A DNA stretch of 64,000 nt from contig JAHBXY010000019.1 in the NCBI GenBank assembly GCA_019636275.1, positions 8,764 through 72,763 of the forward strand. The letters are read 5' to 3'. Position 1 is the stretch's first letter; each line of letters opens with the position of its first letter. A program made the position numbers and the translations under genes. The notes below the pieces were generated by a model. The model was not told the DNA's origin, made no database searches, and worked only from the letters and a program-made list of their open reading frames with translations. Origin of the DNA: Planctomycetota bacterium (lineage in GTDB: Bacteria > Planctomycetota > J058). This document shows positions 596 to 63,980 of the stretch, piece after piece.

Positions 596-3291
<2,696 letters not shown>

Positions 3292-3331
3292 GCCCGGATG
3301 ATGCCGCGCCCGGGGCGCGCTCGCGAGGGCG

Positions 3332-6004
<2,673 letters not shown>

Positions 6005-7652
6005 CGGCTCCGCTCACCGAGGGCCTGGAGCACCGGCGCCCACCGGTCGGTCTCGAGGTCGCCGGCCGCCCGCGCGGCGTCGAGGAGCGCGCGCGCGGCC
6101 GCGGCGTCTCCGCGGCGCAGGTGGACGCGCGCCAGCAGCAGCCGCGCGTCGTTCCCCCGGCGGACCGCCGTGCGGCGGCCGCGGCGGTCCTGGCCGGGGC
6201 GCCGGGCGACCTCGGCCAGCACCTCGTCGGCGGCGGCGGCGGCGACGTCGAGGCGCTCCAGCGCGACGGCCAGCTCCGCCCGCCGCAGGTGCAGGACGTA
6301 AGGGAACGCCAGCTCCGTCGGCCCCTCCAGGGCGCGCAGCCGCTCGAGGCTCGCCGACGCGAGCGTCAGCCCCTCCTCGGCGCGCCCCCGGCGCTCGAGG
6401 AGGACGGACAGGCCGACGAACGGGCTCTCGAGGTAGCGGAGCACGTTGTCGACGTCGAAGCGGGCGTCGGCCGCGCCGAGGCTTCCGGCGCGGAAGTCGT
6501 CGCGCGCCTCGCCCCGGGCGGCGAGGGTGACGATCCGCCAGCCGACCTCGACCTGCGCCCGGAGCGACGCCTCGAGCGCCGCCTCGAGCTCCTCGCGCCA
6601 GGCCGCGTCCACCCCCGGCCAGGCGAGGAGCAGCTCGATGCACCGGTCCTCGAGGTGCAGGAGCTTGGCCGCGCGCGTCGGGTCCTTCTCCTCGCCGTCG
6701 CGCGCGCGGAAGGCCTGCACGAGCTCGAGGCCCGCCCGGGCCTGCGCGACGGCCGCCTCTCGCTCGTCGGCCGGCCGACGGAGCGCGAGCCCCACCGTGA
6801 GCGCCCCGACCCACGCGCGGGCGTGCGGCGCCCAGTAGGACGTCAGCGGCACCTCGAGCGGCTGCGGCGCCCCCAACCCCTGCAAGCGCTCGCGCTCCTC
6901 GAGCCCGAGGGAGGGGCCCAGCGCCTGCGCGAACGTGGCCCGGACCCTGGTCAGCTCGGGAGCGCCCAGCTCCGGCCAGTGCGCGCGCGCGCGCCCCTCC
7001 GCGTCGTCGCCGCCCCGGGGCTCCCGCGTCGCCCGGAGGAGCTCCGCCCACATGAGGTAGGCGTCGCCCGTCCGGTGCTCGCGCGCGAAGGTCTCGAGGA
7101 CCTGCTCGTCGAGGGCCCGCCGGAAGCGGTCGATGAACGCCAGGTTGTCCGTCGGCAGGCGGTGGAGCCCCGGCAGGGCCATGACGAGCGCCATGGGCGG
7201 GATCTTCTCCTGGGCGAGCGCCGGCCGCATGGCGTGCACGACGGCGTCGACGGTGTCGCGCCGGAACTGCTCGTCGCCCCAGTCGCCGAGGAGCTCGAGC
7301 CCGGCCTGCAGGACGTCGCCGAACCCCACCGACGCCGGCTCCGAGTCGGCCTCGTAGGAGCGCCGCCCCGCGAGCGTCGCCAGCTCGCGCGTGAGCGCGA
7401 CGAGCCGCCCCTCGCGCAGGCGCGCCCGCGGCTCGGCGCGCGCGAGCGGCGTGATCGCGCCGCGGAGCGCCTCGGCCAGCGCGGCGTAGGGCTCGTGCCG
7501 CTTCAGGCGCGGGTCGCCGTCGGGCGGGAAGCGCTCCACGAGCCGGGCGGCCGCGGCCGCGAGGGCCGCGGGCTTCCGCCGGCGCAGGGCCCCGAGCGCG
7601 AACGGCCGCGCGCGCGCGTCCACCTGCGACAGGGCCGGCAGCCCGGGGTCCG

Positions 7653-9641
<1,989 letters not shown>

Positions 9642-9750
9642 CGGCGGCGCCCCCTCCAGGGACCATATCCCTTCTTGGCAGCCCCCGGCCACCTCCGTAG
9701 ACTGCCCCGGCCCGAGGGAGACCCCTCGGCGCCCGGAGGCGGGACAGCAC

Positions 9751-23200: not shown

Positions 23201-24689
23201 GATCTGCATCCTGCGCGGCCACGACCTCGTGTTCGAGCTCGCCAACGGCTCGTTCCTCGCCGCGACCAGCCGGCGCGACGTCGTCGGGCGGCGGCTCCTC
23301 GACGCCTTTCCGGAGCTCGCGGGGCAGGGCCTCGACGAGCTGTTCCGGGACGTCCTGCGCAGCGGCAGCCCCTACGTCGGCGACGAGCTCCTCCTGCGGC
23401 TGGACCGGACCGGGACCGGCGCGCTCGAGGACTCCTACTGGTCGATCAGCCTCTCGCCCCTGCGCGACGGGGGGCGCGCCGACCGCGTCGTGGCGATCGG
23501 CTTCGACCGCACGGCGCAGGTCCGCCAGCGGCGGGAGCTCGAGCTCGCTCGAGGCCGGGCCGAGGCCGCCAGCCGGGCCAAGGACGAGTTCTTCGCCGTG
23601 CTCGGCCACGAGCTGCGCAACCCGATCGCCCCGATCGTCACCGCGCTCCAGCTCATGCGCCTGCGCCCGGACGCGCCGTTCGCCCGCGAGCGCGCCCTCA
23701 TCGAGCGGCAGGTCGGGCACGTCAAGCGGCTCGTCGACGACCTCCTCGACGTGTCGCGCCTGGCGCGCGGCAAGGTCACGCTCGCCCGCCGGCCGGTCGA
23801 CCTGGCGCGCGCCCTGGCCCGCGCCGTCGACGCGGCCGCGCCGCTGCTCGAGGAGCGGCGCCACCGGCTCGCCATGGACGTCCCGGCGGCGGCGAGCCTC
23901 GTCGTCCTGGGCGACGAGGACCGCCTCGTGCAGGTCGCGGCCAGCCTGCTCACGAACGCGGCCCAGCACATGGACCAGGGCGGGACGGTCCGCCTGGCCG
24001 CCCGGCGGGCGGGCGACGAGGTCACGTTCACCGTCACCGACGACGGGCCCGGGATCGAGGCCGCCCTCCTCCCGCGCGTGTTCGAGCCGTTCGTGCAGGG
24101 GCGCCGGCCGGACGACCGCGTCCAGGGGGGGCTCGGCCTCGGGCTGTCGATCGTGCGCAGCCTGGTCGAGCTGCACGGCGGGACCGTCGCGGCGGCGAGC
24201 CCCGGCCGCGGGCAGGGGAGCGCCTTCACGGTCGCGTTGCCCGCCGCGCCGGCCGAGGAGGCGGCGGCCGGACCGGACCGGGCGGCGCCCGCCGCGCGCG
24301 CGCGCCGGGTCCTCGTCGTCGACGACAACCGCGACGCGGCGGACCTGCTGGCCGAGGCCCTGACCGCCCTCGGCCACGAGGCGCGGCGGGCGTTCGACGC
24401 GCCGTCGGCCCTCGAGGTCGCCGCCGAGTTCGCGCCGGAGGTGGCCCTCCTCGACCTCGGGCTGCCGATCATGAACGGCTGGGAGCTGGCGCGCCGCCTG
24501 CGCGAGCTGCCGGCCTGCCGCGGCGCGCGCCTGTTCGCGGTCACCGGCTACGGCCTCGACGCCGACGTCGAGCGCTCGCGCGAGGCCGGGTTCGAGCGGC
24601 ACTTCGTCAAGCCGGTCGACCTCGAGGTCATCGTCGAGGCCATCGAGGAGGCCGTCGACGCGGGGCCCATCCCCGCGCCGACCGCGTGA
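20253..24689 (+). CDS. hybrid sensor histidine kinase with GAF domains, PAS domain, two complete HisKA+HATPase transmitter modules and a C-terminal receiver
   Basis: First H-box VVSHDLRGPL with G-box GTGLGLAIAK. Second H-box VLGHELRNPI with GGLGLGLSIV. C-terminal REC RVLVVDDNRD…ALLDLGLP…KP. Confidence 0.85.
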   Translation: MRSFRGRDEDGRGPPVHLARGHPGARLTEPRPEPVVEDAASAARPADRPGLAQVAGALADAATLEAVIEALAPGALGVRAVALFCLASDGEALERLTGAEADERALAAAALRDGGPRATTPPARRCRCAPAASRGRPRRDPDGRLTAPRSSPPAALVGQALERARLAGAAARAEATAQQRQREAELLLRVSDAVGRADTLDEVLEPALDAVCVALRVDRAAVLIGDDAGVMRFRAWRGLSDGYRRAVEGHSPWRVGDPDPRPLFVPDADADADLAAYRPLLRAEEVAALGFVPLVAQRRLLGKLMVYARAPRAFSEHDDRLARAVAAQVAQAIRRTELLASERRERDLARRLADQASRLQAVTAALSTASSVSDVAAVIVIQGAAAAGAATAGLWLLDEADAALELTSQQNFSAAADAFRRLPLDHPRPVPVLDAVRRGEAVFLEDRRAFAARYPDIERVAAPRPELAIAALPLLVGGCVGALALTFDEARAFTSDERHALLLLARHCAQAIGRARLFDLEARARAEAEAAQQRTSFLLTASALLASSLDFEETLRRLPRLAVPRVADGFAVELATERGRSAQPLALAHVDPERMAALQELRRRWPPDPDAPHGAPRVIRTGRSALYAVVDDALLNEVAVDAEHLRALRTVGIASALIVPMEARGRTYGALAFYSGAPGRFGEQDLQLAELLGRRAGIAIDNALLYRTAQAAVRAREKVLAVVSHDLRGPLQVVQMGAAALQRVEPAPPVVRRTSGSILRAGERMSRLIEDLLDFTGIQGDRLAIAAGPCRAEEVVAATLETFAALASERGVRLAADVAPDLPGLHADRDRLIQALGNLVSNAVRVTPEGGRVVVRARAEGGELALAVEDTGPGLDPREVARLFEPFWRGEQVRYKGTGLGLAIAKAIAEGHGGRISADGRPGAGSTFTLAVPLQARPQPSKAGDRAARPWDDGLGAAPAIDVGTPEEAPRRHHDLFMQTPAPICILRGHDLVFELANGSFLAATSRRDVVGRRLLDAFPELAGQGLDELFRDVLRSGSPYVGDELLLRLDRTGTGALEDSYWSISLSPLRDGGRADRVVAIGFDRTAQVRQRRELELARGRAEAASRAKDEFFAVLGHELRNPIAPIVTALQLMRLRPDAPFARERALIERQVGHVKRLVDDLLDVSRLARGKVTLARRPVDLARALARAVDAAAPLLEERRHRLAMDVPAAASLVVLGDEDRLVQVAASLLTNAAQHMDQGGTVRLAARRAGDEVTFTVTDDGPGIEAALLPRVFEPFVQGRRPDDRVQGGLGLGLSIVRSLVELHGGTVAAASPGRGQGSAFTVALPAAPAEEAAAGPDRAAPAARARRVLVVDDNRDAADLLAEALTALGHEARRAFDAPSALEVAAEFAPEVALLDLGLPIMNGWELARRLRELPACRGARLFAVTGYGLDADVERSREAGFERHFVKPVDLEVIVEAIEEAVDAGPIPAPTA

Positions 24690-24870: not shown

Positions 24871-27641
24871 TTGAGCGACGGCGACACGACGAAGCGGGAC
24901 GCGAGGGTCCTCCCCCTGCCCGGCGACACGCTCCAGGGCGCGTCGCTGCTCCCGCTGCCGCGCCCGGGCGAGCTCTCCGTGACCGCGCTCGACGGCCCCC
25001 CCGCGCCGGCCGCCCCGGCGCCCGCCGCCCGGCGCCTCGGCGCCTACGAGGTCGAGCGCGAGCTGGCCCGCGGCGGCATGGGCGTCGTCTACGCGGCGCG
25101 CAGCCTGCGCCTCGGCCGGCGCGTCGCGCTCAAGGTGCTCCAGGCGGGCGCCTTCGCCGACGCCGAGGAGGTCGAGCGGTTCCTGCTCGAGGCGCGGGCG
25201 GTGGCGCGGCTGCGGCACCCCAACATCGTCGCCGTTCACGAGGTCGACCGCGACGGCGCCACCTGGTTCCTGGCCATGGACCTGATCGAGGGCGGCTCGC
25301 TCCGCGGGCGGGTCCTGCGCGACGGCCCGCTCCCCCTGCGGCAGGCGGCGGCGCTCGCGCGCGACGTGGCGCGGGCGCTGCACCACGCGCACGAGCGGGG
25401 GATCGTCCACCGCGACGTCAAGCCCCACAACGTGCTCCTGGACGCCGCGGGGACCCCCTACGTGGCGGACTTCGGCCTGGCGAAGGAGGTCGGGCGTGAC
25501 GGGTCGGGGCTGACGGTCACGGGGCAGGTCGTGGGCACGCCCGCCTACATGCCGCCCGAGCAGGCGCAGGGCGACCTGGCGCGCATCGACCGGCGCAGCG
25601 ACGTCTACTCGCTCGGGGCCACCCTCTTCGAGCTGCTCACCGGGCGCCCGCCCTTCGCTGCGTCGAACGCGGTGGCGCTCCTCCGCGCCGTCCTGGAGGA
25701 CGAGCCGCCGGCGCCGTCGACGGTCCGACCCGAGGTCGACCGCGACCTGGAGACGATCGTCCTCACCTGCCTGGCCAAGGACGGGGCGCGGCGCTACGAC
25801 ACGTGCGCGCTGCTGGCGGAGGACCTGGACCGCTGGCTCGCGGACGAGCCGATCGCGGCGCGGCGGCCTGGCGCGCTCGAGCGCGCGGCCCGCTGGCGCG
25901 GCAGGCGGCCCGGCCTCGTCGCGGTCGTGCTGGCGGCGCCGCTGGTGGTCGGCGCCGTGGCCGGCGGCAGCGGTCGCGGCGTGCCGGCGGCGGCGCGGAG
26001 CAGGCCGGGTCGCCTGGCCGTCGAGGCCGCCGCGAGGGGGCCCTGGCTGTGGCGGTCGCGCCCGACCAGCGGGTGGCGCGGGCGCAGGACCTGCTCGACG
26101 CGGCGCGGCGCTGGCTCGAGGTCGAGCCCGGCGACCGCTCGCGGCGGGCCGTGACGGACGCCGCGCTCGGGCTGGGCGACCTCGCGCGCGCGGCGGGCGA
26201 CTGGAGCCGGGCCGGCGACGCGTACGCCCACGCCGGCGCCGCAGGCCTCGAGTCCGTGCGCGCGGCGGCCGCGGTGCGGTGGTGCGGCCATCTCTCGTCC
26301 GCGCGGGCGGCCGAGGCCCGGGGCGAGCCGCTCGAGGCGCTGGCGGCGCTGGACAGCGCGCTGGCGCTCGACCTGGGCTGGCCCGAGGCGTACCTGGAGC
26401 GCGCCCGCGTGCTGCGCGACATCGGGTCGGGCCTGACCGCCCTGCGCGAGTTCGACCGCTACCTGGCGCAGCGGCCCGACGACCTGCGCGCGCTGGTGGA
26501 GCGGGCGTCGGCGCGCGACCTCTCGTCATGGCGCGAGGCGCTGGCGGACCTGGACCGCGCGATCGCCCTGCGGCCCGACGCGGCCTGGCTGCGGCTCAAG
26601 CGCGCCGAGGTCCTCATCCGGGCGGGGCAGCTGCGCGAGGCCATCGACGACGCTCGCCGGGCCGTCGCGCTGGCGCCGGCGTGGGGCGAGGCCTGGGGCG
26701 GGCTCGGCTGGATGCTCATGCGGCTCGACGAGGTCGACGAGGCGTCGGCGGCGCTCGAGCGAGGGGTCGCGCTGGCGCCGGAGGTGGTCCGGCTGCGGCA
26801 CTGGCTGGCGGAGTGCCACCTGCGGCGCCGGGACCCGCGGGCGGTCGTCGAGGCCGAGCGCGCGCTGGCGCTGCTGCCGGAGGACATCCCCGCCCGGCTG
26901 GTGCTGGCGGCGGCCAGCCTGCGGCTCGAGGGCGACGCCGCGCGCGCCCGCCGCGAGCTCGAGGCGGTCCTGCGCGCCTCGCCCAGGCAGCCGGAGGCGC
27001 TCGCGCTCCTGGCCGAGGCGCTGCAGGTGGAGGGGGACCTGCCCCGCGCGCGGGCGCGCGCGGAGGAGGCGCTCGCCGTCGACCCGGCGAACGTCACGGC
27101 GCTCCTGATGCGGGCGCAGGGGCGGGTGCGCGAGCACGACCTGGCGGGCGCCCGCGCGGACGCGGGGCGCGTCCTGGAGCTCGCCCCCGGCCGGGCCGAG
27201 GCGTGGCTCGTGCTCGCGGCCATCGAGCGTCTGGAGGGAGCTCCGGGGGCCGCCCTCGCGGCCAGCGCCCGGGCGGCGGCCGCCGCCCCGCGCCACGGCA
27301 AGGTGCGGCTGGAGGTGGGGGTGATCCACGCCGAGCTGGGCCAGGCGCGCGCGGCCCTGGCCCACTTCGACGCCGCGCTGGAGCTCGGCGAGCGGCAGGC
27401 GCACGTGGGGCGCGGCGTGGCGCGCCTCCAGCTCGGGGAGCTGGACGCGGCCCTGGCCGATGCCGAGGCCGGCCTCGCGGCGGGCGACCCATCCGGGCTC
27501 CTCCTCCGGGCCATGGTCCATGGCGCGCGCCGCGACTTCGCCCGCGCGCGCGCCGACGCCGCGGCCTTCCTGCGCGAGGTTCCGGACGACCACCCCCACG
27601 CCGCGAAGGCGCGCGAGCTGCTCGAACGCTGGGGGCGCTGA
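24871..27641 (+). CDS. Ser/Thr protein kinase – TM – TPR protein; frame changes between the TM segment and the TPR domain (about 25990–26050)
   Basis: Kinase motifs (ARGGMGVVY, ALKVL, HRDVKPHNVL, DFGLAK, AYMPPE) and TM (GLVAVVLAAPLVVGAVAGG) are in frame 1 (start TTG 24871, alternative GTG 24979). At least ten TPR-like repeats are in the frame of ORF 25803..27641. Confidence 0.65.
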
Positions 27642-42904: not shown

Positions 42905-44716
42905 TCAGGACCTGAGCTCCTCCACGAAGACCTTCCAGGCGGCCTCGAGCGCCTTGTCGAACGCCCGGCGCACGCGCGGGTCGTCGGTCCGCAGGGCGGC
43001 CCCATTCGTGGCGGGGGCGACGGCGGCGGCCGGCGCGGCCGGCGCGACCGGGGCGGCGGCCTCGACCGGCGCCGACCGGGCGGGGGCGACCGGGGGCGCG
43101 GCCACGGCCGCCGCCGCCGCATGGCGCGCCGAGTCGCCCGACATCGCCTCCTCGAGGCGCCGCGCGCTCTGGCGCAGGCGGTCGCGCAGCGCCGCCTCCT
43201 CGTCGTCGTCGTCATCGCGGGCGTCGTCGACCGGGCGCCCGGCGTCGATCATGCGGCCGACCTCGCTGGCGCTGAGCGGCACCTCGTCGTCGAGCGCCGG
43301 CACGGGGACGTCCTCGTCGTCGTCGGCCGGGTGCGAGGCCGAGGCCGCGCGCGACCCGGACAGGCCCGAGTCGAACACGTCGCCGCCGGGGATCGTCGCC
43401 GGCGGGGGCGGCGGCGGCGCGGCGACGTCGTCCGCGCTCTGGAAGGGGGACGACGCCGTGGCCGCCAGCTCCGGCTCGGGCCGCCGCGGGGGCACCGGCG
43501 GCGCCGGCGGCTGCGTCGGCGCCGGCGGCGCGGCGGCCTGCGTCCGCTCGGAGCCGGCGCGCGCCGGCTCTTCGAGGGCGCGCCTGGCGAGCCGCTCCGA
43601 CGCCGGCCGCTGGCTGATCGGCCGGTCGTCGAACGCCTCGGCCGCCCAGGCCCCGTCGGTCTCCATCTCGTCGCCGCTGTCCATGCGCTCGATCGCGCGC
43701 AGGTCGTCCTCGTCGAGGTCGACGTCGGAACCGATCTCGCTCACGTCCTCGGCCAGGTCCGCCTCGTCCTCGCCGCCCTCGGCTGCCACCTTCTCGACCA
43801 GGTCGTCGAGCTTGGCGGGGTCGATGTCCAGCTTGTCCTCGTCGTCGTCGAGGTCCTCGTCGAGGTTCACCCCGTCGAGGTCGTCGTCGTCCTCGTCGAG
43901 GTCCACGTCCTTGAGGTCGTCGTCGTCGAGGTCCACGCCCTTGAGGTCGTCGTCGTCGAGGTCGTCCTCGTCGAGGTCCACGTCCTTCAGGTCGTCGTCC
44001 TTCAGGTCGTCGTCCTTCAGGTCGTCGTCCTTCAGGTCGTCGTCCTTCAGGTCGTCGTCGTCGAGGTCCACCCCGTCGAGGTCGGCGCCGGCGTCGTCGA
44101 GGTCGGCCTCGTCGAGGTCGTCGTCGTCGAGGTCCACGTCCTTGAGGTCGTCGTCGTCGGCGTCGTCGTCGGCGGCCGGGGCCGGGCGGGCCGGCGCGGG
44201 CCTGGCCGGCGCCTCGGGCGCGCCCTTGAGGACGGGCGTCGGCCCGCTGGCGCTGAGCGCCCGCGTGTTGCCGCTGCGCGCCTTGGCCCGGTCGCGCTCA
44301 TCGATCCCCTTGCGCACGTCGGCGGCCTGCTTCGACGTGAGCTTCCCCTGCGCGACGAGGATCTCGGCCAGCCCCTCGACCTTGCCCTTGCCCTGGTAGG
44401 CGTCCTTCTGGGCGTCGAGGGCGCGCTCGATGTCGGCCTGCTGCAGGAGCTCCATGCGCAGGCACTGCCGCCCGAAGCGCTTGTCGAGGTCGCGCTGCTC
44501 GCGGTAGCGGCAGGCGTTGACCACCGACTGGTGCTGCCGCTCGCTCAGGAAGCCGAGGCGCACCATCACCTCGCCCAGCGGCGGCTTCTTCTTGCCGCCC
44601 TTGGCGAGCGAGTCCAGCTCCTCGGCCGCCTTGCGCACCTGGAAGCGCGTGACGAGCTTGTTGTCGAGGGCGATCTTCGTGTAGAGGTCCTCGACCGCCT
44701 GCGGATCAGAGCTCAC
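42905..44716 (-). CDS. T2SSE_N/MshEN-like domain protein with extreme acidic (DDDLKDVDL)n repeats and a Pro/Ala-rich tail
   Basis: Two GspE-N-like repeats at the N-terminus (…PLGEVMVRLGFLSERQ… and …GLAEILVAQGKLTSKQAADV…), then about 150 aa of Asp/Leu/Lys repeats. Confidence 0.6.
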   Translation of the reverse strand: MSSDPQAVEDLYTKIALDNKLVTRFQVRKAAEELDSLAKGGKKKPPLGEVMVRLGFLSERQHQSVVNACRYREQRDLDKRFGRQCLRMELLQQADIERALDAQKDAYQGKGKVEGLAEILVAQGKLTSKQAADVRKGIDERDRAKARSGNTRALSASGPTPVLKGAPEAPARPAPARPAPAADDDADDDDLKDVDLDDDDLDEADLDDAGADLDGVDLDDDDLKDDDLKDDDLKDDDLKDDDLKDVDLDEDDLDDDDLKGVDLDDDDLKDVDLDEDDDDLDGVNLDEDLDDDEDKLDIDPAKLDDLVEKVAAEGGEDEADLAEDVSEIGSDVDLDEDDLRAIERMDSGDEMETDGAWAAEAFDDRPISQRPASERLARRALEEPARAGSERTQAAAPPAPTQPPAPPVPPRRPEPELAATASSPFQSADDVAAPPPPPPATIPGGDVFDSGLSGSRAASASHPADDDEDVPVPALDDEVPLSASEVGRMIDAGRPVDDARDDDDDEEAALRDRLRQSARRLEEAMSGDSARHAAAAAVAAPPVAPARSAPVEAAAPVAPAAPAAAVAPATNGAALRTDDPRVRRAFDKALEAAWKVFVEELRS

Positions 44717-46923: not shown

Positions 46924-48147
46924 TCAGAGGCTCCGGCGGGCGTCGCGCGCGAGGGCCACGACCTCGGCCGCCTCGCGGGGGCGGACGTCGGGCGCGGCCA
47001 GGAGGCGCTCGAGCAGGGCGAGCACGGCCGGCGGGAGGTCGGGGAGCAGGTCGCGCGGGCGGGGGAAGTCGCCGTCGAGGATGCGGCCGATCAGGGCCAT
47101 GGAGTCGTCGTCGGCCATGGGCGGGCGGCCGAGGAGCACCTCGAACGCCGAGACGCCGAGCGAGTAGAGGTCGACGCTCTCGTCGAACTCGGGCGAGCGG
47201 AACACCTCGGGCGCGAGGTACAGCGGGGTGCCGATGAACTCGCGCGAGAGCGTGATCCCGCGGTCGGAGAGGCGGCGCGCCAGGCCGAAGTCGCCGAGGA
47301 CGTGGCCGCCGTCGGCGTCGTAGAACACGTTGCCGGGCTTGACGTCGCGGTGCACGAGGCCGGCGGCGTGGAGGTGTTCGAGCGCCTCGCCCACCTGCTC
47401 GACGAGGCGCAGCGCGGCCTCGACCGGCTGGGGGCCGGCGCGCCGCACGCGCTGGCGCACGGAGCCGCCGGGGAGGAAGTCCATGACGTAGTAGAAGCAA
47501 TCCTCGTGGCGCCCGCTCTCGACGAAGCGCACGAGGCGCGGGTGCGTGAGCCCGCAGAGGGTGTCGATCTCGCGGCGGAAGCGCAGGAGCGTCTCGGTGC
47601 TGCCGACGAGGTGCGGCCAGACGACCTTGAGGGCGCGGACCGTCGGGTCGCCGTCGCGCACGGCCGTGAACACGCAGGCCGTGCCGCCGCGGCCGATGCA
47701 CTCGAGGAGCGCCCAGGGGCCGACGCGGTCGGGGATCGGGGTGAACTGCGCGACCTTGCGCGGCCGCAGGGCCCGCTCGAGCTTGGCCCCCAGCTCGGCC
47801 TCGTTGACGGGCTTGAGCAGGTAGTCGGTGGCGCCCAGGCGGAAGGCCTCCTCGAGCATGGCCTCCTCATCGGTGGCCGAGACGACGAGCACGGGCGGCG
47901 CGTTGGCGCCGAGCTGGTGCTTGACCTCCTGCACGACCTCGAGGCCGCTCATGTGCGGCATGCGCAGGTCGGTGATCACGGCCGCCGGCAGGTCGAGCGG
48001 GAGCTGGCGCATGGCCTCGCGCGGGTCGCCGTAGGCGCACACGTCGAAGCCGCGCTTGCGCAGGCGCGAGCTGAGCATGGCCAGGCACACGCCGTCATCA
48101 TCGACGAGCACGACCCGGCGCGAGGGGGAGGCGAGCGGTTCCGTCAC
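46924..48147 (-). CDS. response-regulator receiver domain fused to a Ser/Thr protein kinase
   Basis: REC (RRVVLVDDD…ITDLRMPHMSG…KP) then kinase (IGRGGTACV, ALKVV, HRDVKPGNV, DFGLAR, LAPE). GTG start at 48147. Confidence 0.75.
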   Translation of the reverse strand: MTEPLASPSRRVVLVDDDGVCLAMLSSRLRKRGFDVCAYGDPREAMRQLPLDLPAAVITDLRMPHMSGLEVVQEVKHQLGANAPPVLVVSATDEEAMLEEAFRLGATDYLLKPVNEAELGAKLERALRPRKVAQFTPIPDRVGPWALLECIGRGGTACVFTAVRDGDPTVRALKVVWPHLVGSTETLLRFRREIDTLCGLTHPRLVRFVESGRHEDCFYYVMDFLPGGSVRQRVRRAGPQPVEAALRLVEQVGEALEHLHAAGLVHRDVKPGNVFYDADGGHVLGDFGLARRLSDRGITLSREFIGTPLYLAPEVFRSPEFDESVDLYSLGVSAFEVLLGRPPMADDDSMALIGRILDGDFPRPRDLLPDLPPAVLALLERLLAAPDVRPREAAEVVALARDARRSL

Positions 48148-48476
48148 GTCCTGGCCCAGGGCGTCCCCCCCGCGTCCGCCGGCCCCGCCGGCGTGGCCAC
48201 ACGCTACTCGCCGCGACAGCGACGTTCCAGTCGGTCGTCCCACCGGCCGGGCCGGCGCCGACGCTCAACTCGTTGGCGCGAGAACGGCTACGACGACCGC
48301 CCGGGGGGGCGCCCTTGAGCGGCCCGATGGGCAGGGCTAGAGTCCCCAAAGGTGCGCGCGGATGGCGAGGACGCCGGCCTCTCAGGCGAACTTTCCTGCC
48401 CGGGTGCAAGTTTCTCGGATCGTGTGTCTTTCTCGATGTGACGAGCAACCGAGCGCGCTGGGCCGGGGGTTGACCC

Positions 48477-51169
48477 ATGGAAATCCGTAAGTTGTCGCCG
48501 GGCGACCGCATCCTCGACTACCGCATCCTCGAGCGCCTGGGCGAGGGCGGCTTCGGGGAGGTGTTCCGCGCCGAGCACGAGGTGCTCGGGCGGATCGTCG
48601 CCATCAAGGTCCCGCGGGACCAGGGCAGCCTCACGGCCCTGCGGCACGAGGGCGTGGTCCAGGCGTCGCTCGACCACCCCAACATCGTGCGCACGCTGGA
48701 GCTGAGCATCTCCCACGACCCGCCCTACGTCGTCATGGAGTACGTCGCCGGCGCGTCGCTGGCCGACCTCCTGCGCCGCGACGGGGCGCTGCCGTGGCGC
48801 CGGGCGGGCAAGGTCCTGCTCGAGGTGGCCCGAGCGCTGGCCCACGCGCACGGCCACGGGGTCGTCCACGGCGACGTGAAGCCGGGCAACGTCCTGGTGG
48901 AGAACGCCCGCATGACCGCCCCGGGGCAGCCGGCGCGCGTGCTGCTGACCGACTTCGGGCTCGGCCGCGTGTTCGAGGGGCCGCAGGGCTGCCTGCAGAT
49001 CTCGCGCAGCCTGGAGCTGGCCACGTCGGGCACCGAGGTCCAGGGCACGATCCGCTACCTGGCGCCGGAGCTGCTCCGCGGCGAGACGGCCGACGAGCGG
49101 GCCGACGTCTACTCGTTCGGCGTGCTCCTGTTCGAGATCCTGACCGGCCGCCTGCCCGAGGGGCGCGAGGTGCCGAGCGACCTGGCGCGCGACCTTCCGC
49201 CCGAGTTCGACCGGATCTTCGCTCGCACCTTCACGCGGCGGGAGCGGCGGCCGCGGTCGCTCGGGCCGACGATCGAGGACCTCGAGCAGGTGCTCGGTGA
49301 GCGGGTCGCGATCAAGGCGCCCGAGGCGCCGGCGCCGGCGCCGACGAACCTCGTCGTGCGGGCGGAGCCGGCGGCGCCGCCGCCGGTGGTCGCCTGCGCC
49401 GCGCCGCCGGTCGTCCGGGCGATCCCGGCCAGCCCGGGCCGGCGACCGCCCGCGCTGCGGCCGCTGGCACGCGTCGCCGCCCGCCGCCGGGGTGGCGCCG
49501 CCGCCGCCCGAGGTCGTGGCCGCCGTGCCCGCGCCGGCCCCGCGGCGCCGGTGGCCGCGATGCCGGCCGTCCCGGCCGCGTTCGCGCGCTGGCGCGACGC
49601 CGTCGTCGCGCAGGTCCGCGACCGCATGACGGCGGTGCGGGCGATGAACGTGAGCGACGGGCAGGGCTTCGACGTGTGCTTCGGCGTCAGCGCCGACGGC
49701 GAGCCGCACCACCGCGTCTACGCCCTGTTCCTCCCCGTCCTCGACGCGGCGACGGCGCGCTCGACGGTGGCCACGGCGCGGCAGATCTTCGAGCGCGAGA
49801 AGGGGATCTGGGAGAAGGAGGTCACCTTCGCGGTGGTCGCGCAGCAGGTGCGCGACCTCGACCAGGTGCTCTGGGCGTTCAAGTCGTTCTCGATGGGCTG
49901 GTGGCGCCGCCGCCGCATGATGCTCCACGACCTGGAGAGCGACCGCCTCTACGCGGCGGAGCTCGGCTGCGACCCGCGCGGCAACCCGCTCAAGCGCGCG
50001 TTCCTCGACGCCTCGTTCGAGGCGGTGCGGGCCGTCCCGCGAGGCGAGCCCGAGGTCACGGCCACGCCGGTGCGCCGGCGCTCGGTCCGCGGCACGGCGT
50101 GGGGCGCGGCCCTGGCCCTGATCATGGCCGTCGGCCTCATGGGCAGCGTCATGGCGATCGAGTTCGCCAGCCGGCAGGTGCGCAAGAGCCGGGCGCGGAA
50201 GAAGGCCACGCCCACGCTGACGACGGCCCTCGAGGGCCCGAGCCGCGCCGCGGCGACCTCGCGCCAGGCCGAGGGCGCGGTCGCCCCGCGGGCACCGGAG
50301 TCGCCCGACGCCGCGATCGCCCCGCGCGCCACGGGCTCGGCGACGACGCTCGACGGCGCCGTCGCCCCGCGCGCCCCAGGCTCGGCCACCGAGGGCGCCG
50401 TCGCCCGCGCGCGCCCGGGCTCGGCCCCGAGGGGCGCCGTCGCCCGCGGGCGCCCGGCTCGGCCACCGAGGGCGCCGTCGCCCCGCGCGCCCCGGGCTCG
50501 GCCACCGGGCGCCGTCGCCCCGCCGCGCCAGGCTCGGCCACCGGGGGCGCCGTCGCCCCGCGGGCACCCGGCTCGGCCACCGAGGGCGCCGTCGCCCCGC
50601 AGGCGCCCGGCTCGGCCACCGGGGGGCCGTCGCCCCAGGCGCCCGGCTCGGCCACCGAGGGCGCCGTCGCCCCGCGTGCGCCCGGCTCGGCCACCGAGGG
50701 CGCCGTCGCCCCGCAGGCGCCCGGCTCGGCCACCGAGGGCGCCGTCGCCCCGCGGGCGCCCGGCTCGGCCACCGGGGGCGCCGTCGCCCGCGTGCGCCCG
50801 GCTCGGCCACCGAGGGCGCCGTCGCCCCGCGGGCGCCCGGCTCGGCCACCGAGGGGCGCCGTCGCCCCGCGGGCGCCCGGCTCGGCCACCGGGGCGCCGT
50901 CGCCCCGCGTGCGCCGGTTCGGCCACCGGGCGCCGTCGCCCCGCGTGCGCCCGGCTCGGCCACCGATGGCGCCGTCGCCCGCGTGCCGGCTACGGCCACC
51001 GGGGCGCCGTCGCCCGCGTGCCCCGGGCTCGGCCACCGAGGGCGCCGTCGCCCCGCGCGCGCCCGGCTCGGCCACCGAGGGCGCCGTCGCCCCGCGTCGC
51101 AAGGTCCCCGCGCGCGTGCCCGACGAGTTCACGCCGCGCGAGGAGCCGCGGGTCCTCGAGTGGTTCTGA
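48477..51169 (+). CDS. kinase-like protein (probable pseudokinase, HGD loop) – TM – (GSATEGAVAPRAP)n repeat protein; the frame is scrambled inside the repeats
   Basis: GEGGFGEV, AIKV, VHGDVKPGNVL, DFGLGR, YLAPE; TM GAALALIMAVGLMGSVMAI. The repeat region is open in all three frames; a clean non-repeat C-terminus (…PDEFTPREEPRVLEWF*) and a stop at 51169 are in frame 2. Confidence 0.55.
50270..51110 (+). repeat. about 20 tandem copies of a 39-bp unit (cccggctcggccaccgagggcgccgtcgccccgcgggcg) with ±1-nt variants
   Basis: Direct visual periodicity; the translated motif PGSATEGAVAPRA hops between frames. Confidence 0.8.
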
Positions 51170-51194
51170 CCTGAACGAAGAACGGTCTCCCGCC

Positions 51195-51223
51195 GCGCCC
51201 GGCCTCCACACGAGGCCGGGCGC
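51195..51223 (+). terminator. perfect 10-bp GC hairpin after the repeat-protein stop
   Basis: gcgcccggcc-tccacacga-ggccgggcgc; no U-tract. Confidence 0.35.
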
Positions 51224-51329
51224 GCGCGTTCCGGATCAACACGCCCTCTGCTCCCTCTGCTCCTCTGTGGTGAACCATCGAAGCCAGGGCGAGGTTGACC
51301 GTACACCTCACGGAGCGATAGAAGGGGGC

Positions 51330-52163
51330 ATGCCCCCCACCGCCGTCGAGAAGAAGCTCAAGGTCGGCCGCAGCCTCGCCGCCCAGGCCGACCCCTACGC
51401 GCTCTACCAGCGCGCCGTCCAGCAGCCGGACGCCGACCTGGACTTCGTCTCGCGCGTCTTCCGCCGCCGCTACGGCCGCCCGCCGCGCGACGTGCGCGAG
51501 GACTTCTGCGCCGCGGCGTTCACGGCCTGCCACTGGGTGCGCCGCAACCGCGAGAACCGGGCCTGGGGCGTGGACCTCGACCCCGCGCCGCTGGCCTGGG
51601 GCCGGACCCACAACGTGTCGGGGCTGCGCGACGACCAGCGGGCGCGCCTGACGCTCGTCCAGGCCGACGTCCTGGCGCCGTCGGTCGTGCCGCCGGTGGA
51701 CATCGTGCTCGCGCAGAACTTCTCCTACTTCATCTTCAAGACGCGCGAGGCCCTGCGCAGCTACTTCGCGGCGGCGCGCGCGGGCCTGCGCCCCGAGGGC
51801 CTCCTCGTGCTCGACCTGTTCGGCGGGCCCGACTCGCAGCGCATGGGAGAGGAGCGCACCCGGCACAAGGGCTTCACCTACGTGTGGGACCAGGCGCGCT
51901 ACGACGCGATCACCAACGAGATCCTGTGCCACATCCACTTCGAGTTCCCCGACCGGAGCAAGCTGCGCAAGGCGTTCAGCTACGACTGGCGCCTGTGGAC
52001 GATCCGCGAGGTGCGCGAGCTCCTGGCCGAGGCCGGCTTCCAGGCCTCCGAGGCCTACTGGGAGGGGGCCACGGCCGAGGGCGAGGGCAACGGGATCTAC
52101 ACGCGACGCGAGTCGGCGATCAACGAGGACTCGTGGCTGGCGTACGTCGTCGGGATCGCCTGA
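51330..52163 (+). CDS. class I SAM-dependent methyltransferase-like protein
   Basis: Own start with an AGAAGGGGG Shine–Dalgarno (gaagggggcATG). Motifs …LVLDLFGGPD… and a Rossmann-like β-strand pattern. The 1228-aa fused ORF is judged an artefact. Confidence 0.6.
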   Translation: MPPTAVEKKLKVGRSLAAQADPYALYQRAVQQPDADLDFVSRVFRRRYGRPPRDVREDFCAAAFTACHWVRRNRENRAWGVDLDPAPLAWGRTHNVSGLRDDQRARLTLVQADVLAPSVVPPVDIVLAQNFSYFIFKTREALRSYFAAARAGLRPEGLLVLDLFGGPDSQRMGEERTRHKGFTYVWDQARYDAITNEILCHIHFEFPDRSKLRKAFSYDWRLWTIREVRELLAEAGFQASEAYWEGATAEGEGNGIYTRRESAINEDSWLAYVVGIA

Positions 52164-52233
52164 CCGCGCCGACCGGCCTCGACCTCTCGCGGCGCGCTGG
52201 CCCGGGTCGGGGCCGAGGGCTACACTCCAGCCG

Positions 52234-53652
52234 ATGATGCTCGAGGACGCGGAGATCCTCCTGGGCAAGATCGCCATCGGCCGCGCCTACCTGAGCCGCG
52301 AGAACGCCCTCAAGGTCGTGGAGACGCTGTCCGAGTGGGGACGCGCCGGGCGTCGCGAGCCGTTCCACTCGGCCGCCGTGCGCCTGGGCTTCCTGGAGCG
52401 GCGCCGCGCCGAGGAGCTGCTCGCCCTGCTCGGCTCGGGCGAGCTGATCTGCCGCGGCCGCTGCGGGCGGCGGGTCCGGCTGGCGCACCTGCACCCGCGC
52501 GACTCTGTCGCCTGCGCCATCTGCGGCGGCCCGCTCTACCTCGCCGTCGGCCCGGCGCCGGTCGCCGCCGCGGACGCCGCGCCCGCCGAGCCCGGGCGGC
52601 GCACCGTCCTCGACCTCGCCGTCCCCGACCTCGGTGACGACCCGGCGCCCGCGCTCGCCTCGCACGAGGACGACCTGCCGACGCTCGCCGCGCGCGCCGG
52701 CGACGACGGCGAGCGGACCGAGGAGCTCGACGCGCCGACGCGGGCGCCCACGGGCGGCGCGGAGGGCGGCGCCGATCCGCTCGACCGAACGTGGCGCTCC
52801 GACGCGCCGGCGGGCGAGGAGTTCGCGCCCTTCGCCGTGGGTGACCTGCAGGTGCTCGCCCCGATCGGGCGCGGCGGCATGGGCAGCGTCTACCGCGCGC
52901 GCTGGCGCGGCCAGGCCGTGGCCGTGAAGATCCTCTCCGCCTCGCCGGACCACCCCGAGGTGATCGCCCGCTTCCAGCGCGAGGTGAAGCTGGCCGGCGC
53001 GCTCGACCACCTGAACATCGTGCGCGTCCTTGCCACGGGCGTCCTCCCCGACGAGGGCACGGAGCGCGGGCGGCCCTACTTCGTCATGGACCACGTCCAG
53101 GGCCGCGACCTCGCCGCCTGGGCCAAGGAGCGCCCGCGCGCGCTGGGCGAGTGCGTGCGCATGGTCGTGACCCTGTGCCAGGCCATGGAGCACGCCCACT
53201 CGCGCGGCGTGATCCACCGCGACCTCAAGCCCGCCAACGTGGTCGTGCGCGCGAAGGACGACCAGCCGATGATCTGCGACTTCGGCCTGGCGAAGGTCAA
53301 GGCCGAGCTGCAGGACCTGACCCGCACGGGGGACATCCTGGGCACGCCCAGCTACATGCCGCCCGAGCAGGCGCTCGGGCACCGGCAGAAGATCGGCCCG
53401 CCGACGGACGTCTACGCCCTCGGCGCCCTCCTCTACCACCTCGTGACCGGGCGCCCGCCGTTCCTCGCGGCGTCGGCGTTCCTGACCATCGCCAGGGTGA
53501 TCAAGGAGCCGCCCGAGCCGCCGCGCGCCCTCAACCCGGCCGTGCCGCCGGCGCTCGAGCAGGTGCTCCTGAAGGCGCTCGAGAAGGACCCCGTCGCGCG
53601 CTACCACACGTGCGGCGAGCTGCGGACGGCGCTGGAGCGGCTGGGGCTCTGA
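52234..53652 (+). CDS. Ser/Thr protein kinase with N-terminal T2SSE_N/MshEN-like domain and zinc ribbon
   Basis: N-terminal …FHSAAVRLGFLERRRAEELLALL… then CRGRCG…CAICGG. Kinase motifs IGRGGMGSVY, AVKIL, HRDLKPANVV, DFGLAK, SYMPPE. Confidence 0.85.
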   Translation: MMLEDAEILLGKIAIGRAYLSRENALKVVETLSEWGRAGRREPFHSAAVRLGFLERRRAEELLALLGSGELICRGRCGRRVRLAHLHPRDSVACAICGGPLYLAVGPAPVAAADAAPAEPGRRTVLDLAVPDLGDDPAPALASHEDDLPTLAARAGDDGERTEELDAPTRAPTGGAEGGADPLDRTWRSDAPAGEEFAPFAVGDLQVLAPIGRGGMGSVYRARWRGQAVAVKILSASPDHPEVIARFQREVKLAGALDHLNIVRVLATGVLPDEGTERGRPYFVMDHVQGRDLAAWAKERPRALGECVRMVVTLCQAMEHAHSRGVIHRDLKPANVVVRAKDDQPMICDFGLAKVKAELQDLTRTGDILGTPSYMPPEQALGHRQKIGPPTDVYALGALLYHLVTGRPPFLAASAFLTIARVIKEPPEPPRALNPAVPPALEQVLLKALEKDPVARYHTCGELRTALERLGL

Positions 53653-63018: not shown

Positions 63019-63557
63019 TCAGCCGGGTGGCTCGTCGTCGCGCGAGAGCAGGCCGGCGCCGGCCAGGACGGCGGCGGCGAGCGCGGCGGCGAGCGCGGAG
63101 GGCGCGCCCCGGCGGCCCGCGAGCGGCGACCACGCTGTCGCCGCGCCGGCCAGGGTCGCCAGCGCGAGCACGGCGACTCCGCGCAGGCGCCCCGGCGCGC
63201 CGCCCCGACGCGCCGCACCCCCACGCACGCCGCGCCGGCCAGCGCGCCGGCCAGGGCCACGGTCACGACCAGGGGCGTCGTCGGTCGCGCGTCGAGGAGC
63301 CCGGCGCCCCGCCCGGCCAGGAAGAGCAGCTCGAGCAGGAGGACGCTCAGCGCCGCGCCCGCCGGGACCTGCACGAGGAGCGCGCCCGCCGCCGTCGCGC
63401 CGTCGAACAGGCGCCGGGGCAGGTGCTGCTCCGGCCCCTGCGCCGGGCGCGCCCGCCAGGCCGTGACGGCCTCGAGCCCGGACAGCAGCAGGTCGAGCAG
63501 CGCGAGCGTCAACGCCGTCACGACGACGACGACGCCGGTCAGCACCCAGCCGCTCAT
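63019..63557 (-). CDS. hypothetical polytopic membrane protein, apparently frameshifted near 63200
   Basis: Three or more hydrophobic helices from the start at 63557, then GC-frame noise; the hydrophobic C-terminus continues in the frame of ORF 63019..63621. Confidence 0.3.
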
Positions 63558-63980
63558 GGCGCCGGGTCCGTCGGCTCACCCGGACCGGCGACGCCGTCGA
63601 CGCTCGGCGTCGGGCGGGCAAACGACTCGCTCGCTCCGGCCGGCGCGAGGAGCGCGGCGGCGAGCGTCGCCGCCGTGGAGAGGAGGATCACCGGCCCGAA
63701 CAGCGAGTCGCGACGGCCTCGAGCCCGGCCAGCAGCAGGTCGAGCCACGCGAGCGTCAGCGCCGTCACGACGATCCACGACGACGGCCAGCACCCGGCCG
63801 CTCATGGCGCCGGGTCCGTCGGCTCGGTCGAACCAGCGACGGCGTCGATCCTCGGCGCCGGGCGGACGCACGGCTCGCGCGCTCCGGACGGCGCGAGGAG
63901 CGCGGCGCCAAGCGCACCGGCGAGCGTCGCCGCCGTGGAGAGGAGGATCACCGGCACGAACAGCGAGTCGCTCACGCGTC
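63466..63980. repeat. tandem duplication (2 × about 245 bp) reaching the window edge
   Basis: gacggcctcgagcccgg[a/c]cagcagcaggtcgag… recurs at 63466 and 63711. Each unit carries the 5' end of the membrane-protein gene (MSGxVL…) and a small TM peptide (…VILLSTAATLAAALLAP…). Confidence 0.6.

Follow-up and report, generated by a model that had tools for sequence, protein, structure and literature searches.

How is the frame of a gene to be read when its repeats carry it through all three frames? Within a 64-kb stretch of planctomycete DNA (the window), a kinase gene enters a 39-bp tandem array whose units differ in length. An earlier note on this DNA had offered three readings of the scrambled frame: a contingency or phase-variable locus, a decaying gene, or a homopolymer/indel assembly artefact in a GC-rich repeat. 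Synonymous substitutions, deletion bias, clean orthologues, and similar patches elsewhere in the window favor the third. On the sequence features described below, the frame scrambling appears, with good probability, to consist of unpolished consensus indels that are not in the organism's DNA, and the gene itself is probably intact and ordinary. The 39-bp array is a real, coding, lineage-specific expansion of the family's tail unit. Features and coordinates are collected in Table 1.

Table 1. Features of the repeat-tailed kinase locus and frame-hop patches in the window
Feature	Position	Strand	Basis
N-terminal Hanks-type Ser/Thr kinase domain, non-RD (VVHGDVKPGN)	48477..49290	+	Pfam Pkinase, invariant catalytic residues, GC3
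Pro/Ala-rich linker with conserved VVRAIPA motif	49291..49559	+	Sequence
Frame-hop patch in the linker of the repeat-tailed kinase	49434-49528	+	GC3-HMM
Conserved family-specific juxtamembrane domain	49560..50090	+	Many invariant alignment columns
Single hydrophobic TM helix GTAWGAALALIMAVGLMGSVMAI	50103..50171	+	Sequence; position conserved in orthologue alignment
Two degenerate leading repeat copies, GAVAPRAPESPDA / AIAPRATGSATTLD, still in frame 0	50270..50350	+	TRF, translation
39-bp tandem array coding for VAPRAPGSATEGA, ~19.5 copies	50351..51096	+	TRF, unit alignment
True C-terminus ...VAPRRKVPARVPDEFTPREEPRVLEWF, stop at 51167-51169	51085..51169	+	Family motif, tblastn
Perfect 13-bp GC-rich hairpin CGCGCCCGGCCUC-CACAC-GAGGCCGGGCGCG	51194..51224	+	RNA folding
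Separate downstream SAM-methyltransferase-like gene, 277 aa, weak match	51330..52163	+	Pfam below cut-off, GC3, synteny
Frame-hop patch inside GAF domain	20590-20715		GC3-HMM; stitched-frame Pfam
Frame-hop patch splitting kinase-TPR gene	2178-2438		Pfam domains in separate frames

Kinase domain

The N-terminal domain matched Pfam Pkinase over residues 15 to 229 (E 6e-43), and GC at third codon positions (GC3) was ~100% across it in the frame of the start codon. The ATG at 48477 agreed with the orthologue N-terminus MEIRKLxPGDR. The sequence VHGDVKPGNVL was found as the earlier note had described it, and from its HGD in place of HRD a likely pseudokinase had been proposed. Aligning the window protein with 24 orthologues (25 sequences) pointed elsewhere. 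H131-G132-D133 was invariant, as were the beta3 Lys K44, the alphaC Glu E58, K135, N138, DFG (D159-F160-G161), and APE (A196-P197-E198). The Gly-rich loop GEGGFGEV and VAIK were also present, with G22-G27 and K44 invariant in the 25 sequences. At the sequence level, the features expected of a catalytically competent kinase (GxGxxG, beta3 Lys, HxDxKxxN, DFG Asp, and APE) are thus complete, and the three residues of which one would be lost in a pseudokinase, namely, the beta3 Lys, the catalytic Asp, and the DFG Asp, are all present and invariant.

The protein is not an RD kinase, a type that depends on activation-loop phosphorylation, as Gly132 rather than Arg precedes the catalytic Asp in 25/25 family members. 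In non-RD kinases the Arg of HRD is replaced, and the class includes active kinases (PMC3630090); its definition is credited to Dardick & Ronald 2006, as cited in PMC3630090. Replacement of the HRD Arg by Gly makes this a non-RD kinase and does not amount to losing the catalytic Asp. We therefore dropped the pseudokinase reading; by its conserved residues, the kinase is classed as non-RD and is not a demonstrable pseudokinase.

Linker, juxtamembrane domain, and TM helix

Inside the linker, a GC3-based hidden Markov model (GC3-HMM) switched frame over a compensated patch of 89% GC. In the +1 frame the patch reads ASPPAAGVAPPPPEVVAAVPAPAP, with G or C at all third positions; in frame 0 it reads RRRGGAAAARGRGRRARAG, with 7 non-GC3 codons (counted by eye).

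The juxtamembrane domain carries the motifs FARWRD...GFD...GEPHHRVY...FEREKGIWEKEVTF...GWWRRRR...ELGCDPxGNPLKR. Pfam returned no match in the protein apart from the kinase domain, and the AF2 model of the juxtamembrane domain (pLDDT 89, pTM 0.75) had no PDB match at E<=0.001. Among 1.84 billion representatives, the domain occurred in 14 clusters only, 14/14 of them belonging to the same family. The model suggests a domain that folds confidently without known relatives.

The TM helix expected after the kinase domain was present as a hydrophobic helix of residues 543 to 565, and it belongs to a long helix in the AF2 model (model residues 178-209). Arg/Lys clusters flank it on both sides; with both flanks strongly positive, the extracytoplasmic location of the tail is putative.

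The 39-bp array as assembled

The array call (19.5 copies, 89% matches, 5% indels, score 1120) agreed with the ~20 copies counted earlier, and the TRF rows of 77 and 153 bp began at 50269-50270. Splitting the array on the anchor CGTCGCCC yielded units of 39, 39, 38, 37, 38, 39, 38, 37, 39, 39, 39, 38, 40, 38, 36, 39, 35, 38, and 39 nt, a net change of -16 nt. Relative to the 39-nt consensus, the 19 aligned units lacked ~20 nt, had 4 nt in excess, and differed by 27 substitutions. Indels were carried by 12/19 units, at a density of ~1 per 31 nt or ~3% of bases. The 38- and 40-nt copies that the earlier note had reported do exist, but its limit of ±1 nt was too narrow, since lengths of 35 to 40 nt correspond to deviations of up to -4. 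A higher-order repeat spreading the indels was ruled out; TRF periods of 114 and 153 were no better than 39.

The indels were deletion biased (20 nt lost versus 4 nt gained) and all lay in 89% GC sequence, mostly in C4 or G3-5 runs. As read by eye from the alignments, 5 units had GCCCG where GCCCCG is expected, and 6 had a shortened CCGAGGGC/CCGGGGGC run. No mononucleotide run in the consensus unit exceeded 4 nt (C4). Under uniform placement of ~20 indels over the gene, the array and the linker patch (31% of the gene) would receive all of them with a probability of ~8e-11.

As assembled, these indels shift the consensus peptide through all three frames. None of the three forward frames contained a stop over 50270-51100, and the decamer GSATEGAVAP (<=2 mismatches) occurred 9, 1, and 2 times in them, in keeping with the earlier statement that all three are open and that the consensus peptide hops between frames. 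Open frames are, however, a trivial result of the array's GC content of 89%. They are also the sole basis for programmed recoding, in which ribosomal frameshifting or transcriptional slippage would restore the frame, and nothing specific speaks for it. About a dozen efficient shifts in mixed directions would be needed within 750 nt, in an array that has neither slippery heptamers nor A/T homopolymers, and the orthologues require no shifts. Programmed frameshifting was dropped on these grounds, its probability being practically negligible.

Restored frame and the end of the gene

Restoring every unit to 39 nt gave a single ORF of 2709 nt (902 aa) that terminates in the family's conserved C-terminal motif. 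GC3 in this ORF was 0.955, and no more than 6 amino-acid changes distinguished the 19 units. In this register, 22/27 between-unit substitutions fell at codon position 3, 5 at position 2, and 0 at position 1 (binomial P 4e-7 for the position-3 excess); 21 codon changes were synonymous and 6 nonsynonymous. Counting distinct variants only, 9/11 were at position 3 (P 1.4e-3). Such a bias indicates that the array evolved as VAPRAPGSATEGA coding sequence and that purifying selection acted on one frame as its units diverged, a frame that the indels disregard. Recent copying of variants that had already passed selection would also yield a position-3 bias among the units, and the bias would then date the indels as very recent rather than prove them unreal.

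Real indels of recent date would make this a very recent pseudogene with the array as a mutational hot spot; either its kinase would no longer be produced, or it would end in an Arg/Pro-rich tail that is read out of frame and continues into the ORF downstream. The indels do stand in the sequence as given, and GC-rich tandem arrays can adopt secondary structures that promote replication errors. However, the rest of the gene shows no sign of relaxed selection: GC3 is ~100%, the conserved motifs have all been retained, and the C-terminal motif reads intact in the very frame that 39-nt units predict. The gene would have to have acquired at least 12 frame breaks, each independent, ahead of its first position-random substitution. 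Unrelated genes of the window hop frame too; on this reading, several genes would have turned into pseudogenes at about the same time, every one of them only where GC is ~88-89%. Outside the patches, the position-random substitutions, lost motifs, and degraded codon bias of a decaying gene were not seen, and we regard decay as unlikely.

The C-terminus fits the family motif P.R.PD.F.P.E...[YF]F and, as assembled, is not in frame with the start codon. A tblastn search with protein P0001 placed residues 610 to 662 in frame 2 (51026-51166) and residues 1 to 656 in frame 3; the frame with the real C-terminus corresponds to ORF 49676..51169. Beginning 25 nt past the stop, the hairpin had a folding energy of -42.2 kcal/mol (z -4.18) that 0/200 shuffles equaled, and codon periodicity was lost over 51130-51300. 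It is likely a transcript-end structure that marks the real end of the gene. A scan for consensus promoters and terminators found nothing, the hairpin having escaped it for want of a U-tract.

Frame 0 is open from 48477 to 52163, and the six-frame track does merge the gene with the downstream methyltransferase into a 1228-aa ORF, as had been noted. This fusion results from the lack of stops in frame 0 across the intergenic gap at this GC content. GC3 is ~100% from 51330 onward, and a syntenic 266-aa gene stands separate in L081. Matches of the downstream protein to Methyltransf_12/25 were below the Pfam cut-off (E 1e-3).

Tail repeats in orthologues

Homology to the orthologues was full length, extending from residue 1 to the TM helix. 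Among the matches listed by a profile-guided search of genome and metagenome contigs, orthologous loci showed <=61-72% identity over the gene, and L004 reached 82% in a partial match to residues 1 to 273. The closest match in the protein database was 73-78% identical. For an exact 32-mer taken from the repeat, the metagenome contigs searched gave 0 matches. Exact-protein look-ups of the two downstream genes likewise gave no match, and no independent copy of the array turned up among the sequences covered. Relatives came mostly from metagenomes or metagenome-assembled genomes (MAGs).

Three orthologous tails contained arrays of a 36-bp unit, with 21.5 (L002), 10 (L001), and 7.4 (L082) copies, all in frame and with 0% indels. 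Across family members, copy number ranged from 0 to ~23, again in frame. The comparison of orthologues that the earlier note had suggested thus confirmed that repeat number varies, but it lent no support to frame breakage. The wide spread in copy number points to whole-unit slippage or recombination over evolutionary time.

This spread and the three open frames are the points in favor of a phase-variable or contingency locus, at which array slippage would switch the tail and the open frames would be alternative tails. A unit of 39 nt (3x13) means that slippage by whole units preserves the frame. Known phase variation at simple-sequence contingency loci is driven by tracts well above 4 nt, the length of the longest run in the consensus unit. 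In place of one switchable tract, the array has its frame broken at 12 or more separate points; the open frames carry little meaning at this GC content, and the orthologous arrays are free of indels. We consider phase variation extremely unlikely. It is very unlikely, too, that the indels are real and that a hypermutable GC-rich array re-frames the tail through small deletions in short G/C runs. The population would then make a range of different kinase tails, among them PGSATEGAVAPRA and RPARPPRAPSPR, some of which would run on into the methyltransferase-like gene. If true, this would be an unprecedented, new kind of stop-free frame-shuffling diversity generator.

Frame-hop patches elsewhere in the window

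Because GC3 is ~100% in this window, it serves as a sharp reference-free detector of frame errors, and the GC3-HMM was used in this way to locate frame switches. Four patches were located, and at least 3 further to the array lie in the 64 kb, all of ~88-89% GC. In the patch inside the GAF domain, a weak GAF_2 match (E 0.002) appeared only after frames were stitched; as assembled, Pfam gave none. A homology search with this gene returned only generic GAF histidine kinases, which aligned to another part of the protein. Around 2178-2438, one strand encodes a kinase domain (E 4e-46) in one frame, a TPR region of 528 aa (E 3e-37) in a second, and between the two a TM-like helix in the remaining frame; in tblastn over this region, none of the proteins used matched in two frames. 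The remaining genes of the window hold one frame from start to stop.

Stretches of 86-88% GC at 9260-9477, 24944-25084, and 43444-43584 were without frame hops, and GC content as the sole cause was ruled out. That GC content alone does not forecast the patches counts against an artefact.

Origin of the indels

In long-read bacterial assemblies, residual errors are mostly in homopolymer length, and such errors survive short-read polishing in repeats (PMC8812927; also PMC9262707 and PMC12007338). The locus shows the pattern of an artefact: one type of indel prevails, it sits in mononucleotide runs within repeat or extreme-GC sequence, unrelated genes at 2178-2438 and 20590-20715 are broken alike, and the orthologous arrays are clean. 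On the other side, modern base-callers usually have trouble only with homopolymers longer than the 3 to 5 nt affected here. Had the contig been built from short reads only, k-mers bearing the indels would be present in the reads, and the variants would more likely be real.

A variant of the artefact reading, which we rate as possible though somewhat unlikely, is that mixed alleles were collapsed. Co-existing strains would differ in the copy number or unit order of their arrays, and a metagenome consensus drawn over mis-registered alignments would acquire spurious indels. Since the known relatives are mainly metagenomic or MAG, the source of this contig may be likewise; the array varies between lineages, and ~1 indel per 31 nt is far over any plausible residual base-calling error in a polished assembly. 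Mixed alleles would, however, leave the non-repetitive hops in the GAF domain and the kinase-TPR linker unaccounted for, and a deletion bias in short G/C runs is more like base-calling or consensus error.

With consensus indels as the preferred reading, the gene would be intact and would belong to a small family of Planctomycetota proteins, non-RD Hanks-type Ser/Thr kinases anchored in the membrane, with the layout kinase, Pro/Ala linker, juxtamembrane domain, TM helix, variable low-complexity tail, and C-terminal motif. Its array would hold ~21 copies of the 13-residue unit VAPRAPGSATEGA, and the ~24 small indels would be errors left in the consensus, chiefly bases missing from short G/C runs, in an 89%-GC repeat of the sort on which long-read consensus or short-read polishing fails; misaligned reads or mixed alleles collapsed within the array would have the same effect. 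The native product would be one 902-aa protein ending ...PDEFTPREEPRVLEWF, from whose tail a repeated tryptic peptide, APGSATEGAVAPR, is predicted. The disordered tail is probably a spacer of variable length through which the C-terminal motif would reach a partner across the membrane. Gain and loss of whole units by slippage or recombination would set its length between lineages.

What remains as biology is modest and comprises a narrow family of non-RD membrane kinases in planctomycetes, a juxtamembrane domain modeled with confidence but free of Pfam and PDB matches, and a variable tail repeat. The wider point concerns annotation. Stop codons are rare at 75-80% GC, so a few consensus indels re-frame or fuse ORFs silently instead of truncating them. 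Gene callers then report chimeras, here one of 1228 aa, which calls for caution with very GC-rich genomes.

Comparison with known systems

The locus resembles bacterial and MAG assemblies, long-read or hybrid, that contain residual indels (PMC8812927, Polypolish; PMC12007338, Kastor; PMC9262707, an evaluation of ONT R10.4) in its deletion-biased indels in mononucleotide runs. As in those assemblies, errors are concentrated in repeats or hard-to-polish DNA with several patches per contig, and conserved ORFs are broken into "pseudogenes" while neighboring genes are clean. It differs in that the array's runs are short (3-5 nt), ~3% of bases are affected, and some stretches of equal GC content are clean. 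Its likeness to simple-sequence contingency loci is superficial, being limited to repeats within an ORF and changes of frame. The unit here is 39 nt (3x13), long homopolymers and short non-triplet units are absent, and the frame is broken many times rather than at one switch.

PknG of M. tuberculosis is a bacterial non-RD kinase. With non-RD Hanks-type kinases the window protein shares a full Pkinase domain in which a residue other than Arg, here an invariant Gly, precedes the catalytic Asp, whereas its predicted TM anchor on the C-terminal side, lineage-restricted juxtamembrane domain, and repeat tail set it apart. Some bacterial envelope proteins contain in-frame repeats that vary between strains, such as the group B streptococcal alpha C protein and the staphylococcal SD-repeat proteins. 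Like these, the tail is built of near-identical units whose length is a multiple of 3 and whose differences are mostly synonymous, its copy number varies widely (0 to ~23), and its low-complexity sequence, rich in Pro, Ala, Gly, and Ser, is spacer-like. Unlike them, it is attached to a kinase rather than an adhesin, it may be either periplasmic or cytoplasmic, and the variation was seen between lineages rather than strains.

The repeat array and its reading frame

In the tail of the membrane kinase gene, TRF detected a 39-bp tandem array of 19.5 copies (89% matches, 5% indels). When the array was split at a fixed anchor, the units measured 39, 39, 38, 37, 38, 39, 38, 37, 39, 39, 39, 38, 40, 38, 36, 39, 35, 38, and 39 nt, a net change of -16 nt. 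Relative to the consensus CGTCGCCCCGCGGGCGCCCGGCTCGGCCACCGAGGGCGC, the aligned units lack 20 bases, have 4 extra ones, and carry 27 substitutions, and an indel is present in 12 of the 19 units. No stop was found across 50270-51100 in any of the three plus-strand frames, and the decamer GSATEGAVAP of the array consensus occurred 9, 1, and 2 times in these frames. From the ATG at 48477, frame 0 stays open to 52163, giving a 1228-aa ORF. The array, its three open frames, and this ORF were all present as described in an earlier note based on the sequence alone. Of the ±1-nt unit variants that it had reported, those of 38 and 40 nt were confirmed, but lengths extended down to 35 nt.

Coordinates of the target gene, its parts, and frame-hopping patches in the window
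Feature	Position	Strand	Remarks
Target gene	48477-51169	+	membrane kinase
Linker patch	49434-49528	+	target gene's own linker, frame hop
Juxtamembrane domain	49560-50090	+	WEKEVTF / GWWRRRR / ELGCDPxGNPLKR
Second ORF	49676..51169	+	last repeats and stop at 51167-51169
TM helix	50103-50215 (with basic clusters)	+
39-bp array	50351-51096
Kinase/TPR break	2178-2438, within 596-3340	-	89% GC linker, three frames
GAF-domain patch	20590-20715, inside 20403-24689	+	4-kb sensor gene; GC3 HMM

When each array unit was swapped for its 39-nt-registered version, the target gene became one 2709-nt ORF (902 aa) that begins at the 48477 ATG and continues into the conserved C-terminal motif. Each of the 19 restored units reads VAPRAPGSATEGA, with three R-to-Q, two E-to-G, and one E-to-D change as the only differences, and G/C content at third codon positions (GC3) of the restored sequence was 0.955. 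In the 39-nt register, 22 of the 27 substitutions between units fell at codon position 3, 5 at position 2, and 0 at position 1 (binomial P of 4e-7 for the position-3 excess), corresponding to 21 synonymous and 6 nonsynonymous codon changes. Over distinct variants only, the excess was 9/11 (P of 1.4e-3). This bias argues that the units diverged while translated in a single frame. The indels are foreign to the coding history of the units: they either arose extremely recently or are not real. Real recent decay of the gene, which had been offered as one reading, is unlikely, as the substitutions keep the codon frame and the C-terminal motif is retained.

Boundaries of the target gene

The GC content of the window is 75.9%, and its real genes carry G or C at ~98-100% of third codon positions. 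By this measure, the target gene is clean in frame 0 from 48477 to ~50360, except for its short linker patch; the signal is mixed or lost within the array and clean again, in another frame, over the ~85 nt that lead up to the stop at 51169. The following stretch, 51170-51329, is aperiodic, with clean signal resuming from the ATG at 51330, and a perfect 13-bp GC hairpin (-42 kcal/mol, z -4.2) starts 25 nt past the stop. Position 51169 is therefore the end of the target gene, and the methyltransferase-like ORF constitutes a gene of its own, as does its syntenic counterpart in L081, the contig locus of the closest relative among the matches listed, where positions 4415-10539 match a four-gene block at 46924-53652 of the window. 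The block comprises, in order, a divergent response-regulator-kinase, the non-RD membrane kinase, the methyltransferase-like gene of ~270 aa (266 aa in L081), and a further kinase (HRD). Throughout the window, composition is extreme (2-kb windows of up to 80% GC), and both strands commonly carry wrong-frame ORFs of 300-900 aa.

Family architecture and tail repeats in relatives

Orthologues of the N-terminal 600 aa showed 55-78% identity and were 580-770 aa long; where named, their sources were all Planctomycetota MAGs or metagenomes. The family architecture consists of a Pkinase domain, a Pro/Ala linker with a VRAIPA motif, the ~175-aa, very conserved juxtamembrane domain, a single hydrophobic helix, a variable tail, and a conserved C terminus, P.R.PD.F.P.E...[YF]F, which the target gene's ...VPARVPDEFTPREEPRVLEWF fits. 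In a tblastn search with the orthologous protein P0001, aa 1-656 matched frame 3, and aa 610-662 matched frame 2 at 51026-51166.

The earlier note had proposed comparing orthologues for repeat number and frame, and in three contig loci the tail arrays were in frame with 0% indels: 36 bp × 21.5 in L002 (96% matches; 882-aa ORF ending PSRWF), 36 bp × 10 in L001 (open through to LRYF), and 36 bp × 7.4 in L082. Two further orthologous proteins, P0014 and P0017, hold 3-4 repeat copies, and in P0001 the target gene's unit is present once or twice in degenerate form (GSPAEGALTPR). A GAV.P core, read by eye, is common to several tail units. Judged from these sequences, in-frame tail repeats are a family trait. 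A ~20-copy array is therefore normal for the family, and only the indels of the window are abnormal. Past the orthologue stop, L001 contains a second array of its 36-bp unit (6416-6628; 5.9 copies, 0% indels) that runs into the contig end. This second array could belong to an adjacent gene that shares the repeat, or the assembly could have broken within a repeat.

The tail may act as a Pro/Ala/Gly/Ser-rich spacer, presumably disordered, between the TM helix and the C-terminal motif, and its length would be tuned by whole-unit slippage or recombination, because copy number varies from 0 to ~23 between lineages. The TM helix is preceded by RRRSVRG and followed by RQVRKSRARKK, and orthologues show the same basic pattern on both sides; the positive-inside rule therefore gives no side for the repeat tail.

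The juxtamembrane domain has no Pfam match. Its AF2 model is confident (pLDDT 89, pTM 0.75) and shows an a-b-b-b-a-b-a-b-b-a core followed by the long TM helix. No PDB entry matched it significantly, and the weak best matches were restriction-endonuclease-like (PD-(D/E)xK nuclease-like) folds. Only 14 clusters, at 50% identity, were found among 1.84 billion representative proteins, and in full-length matches common to the kinase search the domain sits behind the kinase domain. It is a real, uncharacterised, and lineage-restricted domain.

Frame hopping elsewhere in the window

A seven-state GC3 HMM was run over the whole window. Most genes hold one frame from start to stop, and frame hopping (reading frame shifting within one gene) was also seen in other short patches of ~87-89% GC. 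At 596-3340, a kinase domain (Pfam E 4e-46), a TM-like helix GVAAGLAAGAVACSVGAGLAL, and a 528-aa TPR region (E 3e-37) each lie in a different frame, with no stop-start pair between the pieces; all three probably belong to a single kinase-TM-TPR gene that indels of this type have disrupted. The GAF-domain patch undergoes ~5 frame hops within ~130 nt; its pieces ALPLRAGGQ, VVGALVATPTAA, and DRAALVAP, all of perfect GC3, are spread over different frames. GAF_2 was not matched by Pfam in the as-assembled frame of this patch and was matched only after the frames were stitched (model positions 83-136 of 136, E 0.002).

Two other repeats were noticed. The minus-strand gene at 42914-44702 contains a 15-bp array (43839-44171; ~21.6 copies, 9% indels by TRF), whose unit, read by eye, is Asp-rich on the coding strand. 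The array appears not to be frame-scrambled, the gene keeping a single GC3 frame. At the window end, two copies of a 248-bp direct repeat (85% matches, 5% indels) lie at 63465-63971.

Indels in the window are biased towards deletions, fall preferentially in short G/C runs, and persist in repeats. Residual long-read assembly errors show that pattern and, where they lie in repeats, are not removed by short-read polishing (PMC8812927; PMC9262707; PMC12007338). Because several unrelated patches are broken in genes that are otherwise perfect, patchy consensus error is favoured over multiple fresh pseudogenes, each broken only in GC-rich patches, as real decay would need, which is much less plausible. 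The scrambling most likely has no biological origin. The artefact that the earlier note had listed among its options is favoured by the restored single ORF, the in-frame relatives, and the same hopping elsewhere in the window, and we consider it quite probable that the consensus is at fault, including mixed alleles collapsed in it. Against this, the affected homopolymer runs are short, some stretches of 86-88% GC are clean of frame hopping, and a purely short-read contig would make real variants more likely. The matches listed in contig and protein searches included no same-species copy of the locus. Phase variation, with slippage changing the tail, is very improbable, and programmed recoding has a negligible chance of accounting for the frame changes.

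Classification of the kinase

The kinase had been called a likely pseudokinase from its HGD motif. H131-G132-D133 is invariant in 25/25 aligned sequences, as are K44 (VAIK), E58, K135, N138, D159-F160-G161, and A196-P197-E198. The sole HRD change in the family is the replaced Arg. The pseudokinase reading is unsupported, because every residue whose loss marks a pseudokinase is retained in this alignment. By its residues, the protein classifies as a non-RD kinase; functional kinases such as FLS2 and XA21 belong to this class, in which regulation through the activation loop differs (PMC3630090). The underlying gene joins a known kind, its product being a Hanks kinase of the non-RD class whose in-frame repeat tail is variable.
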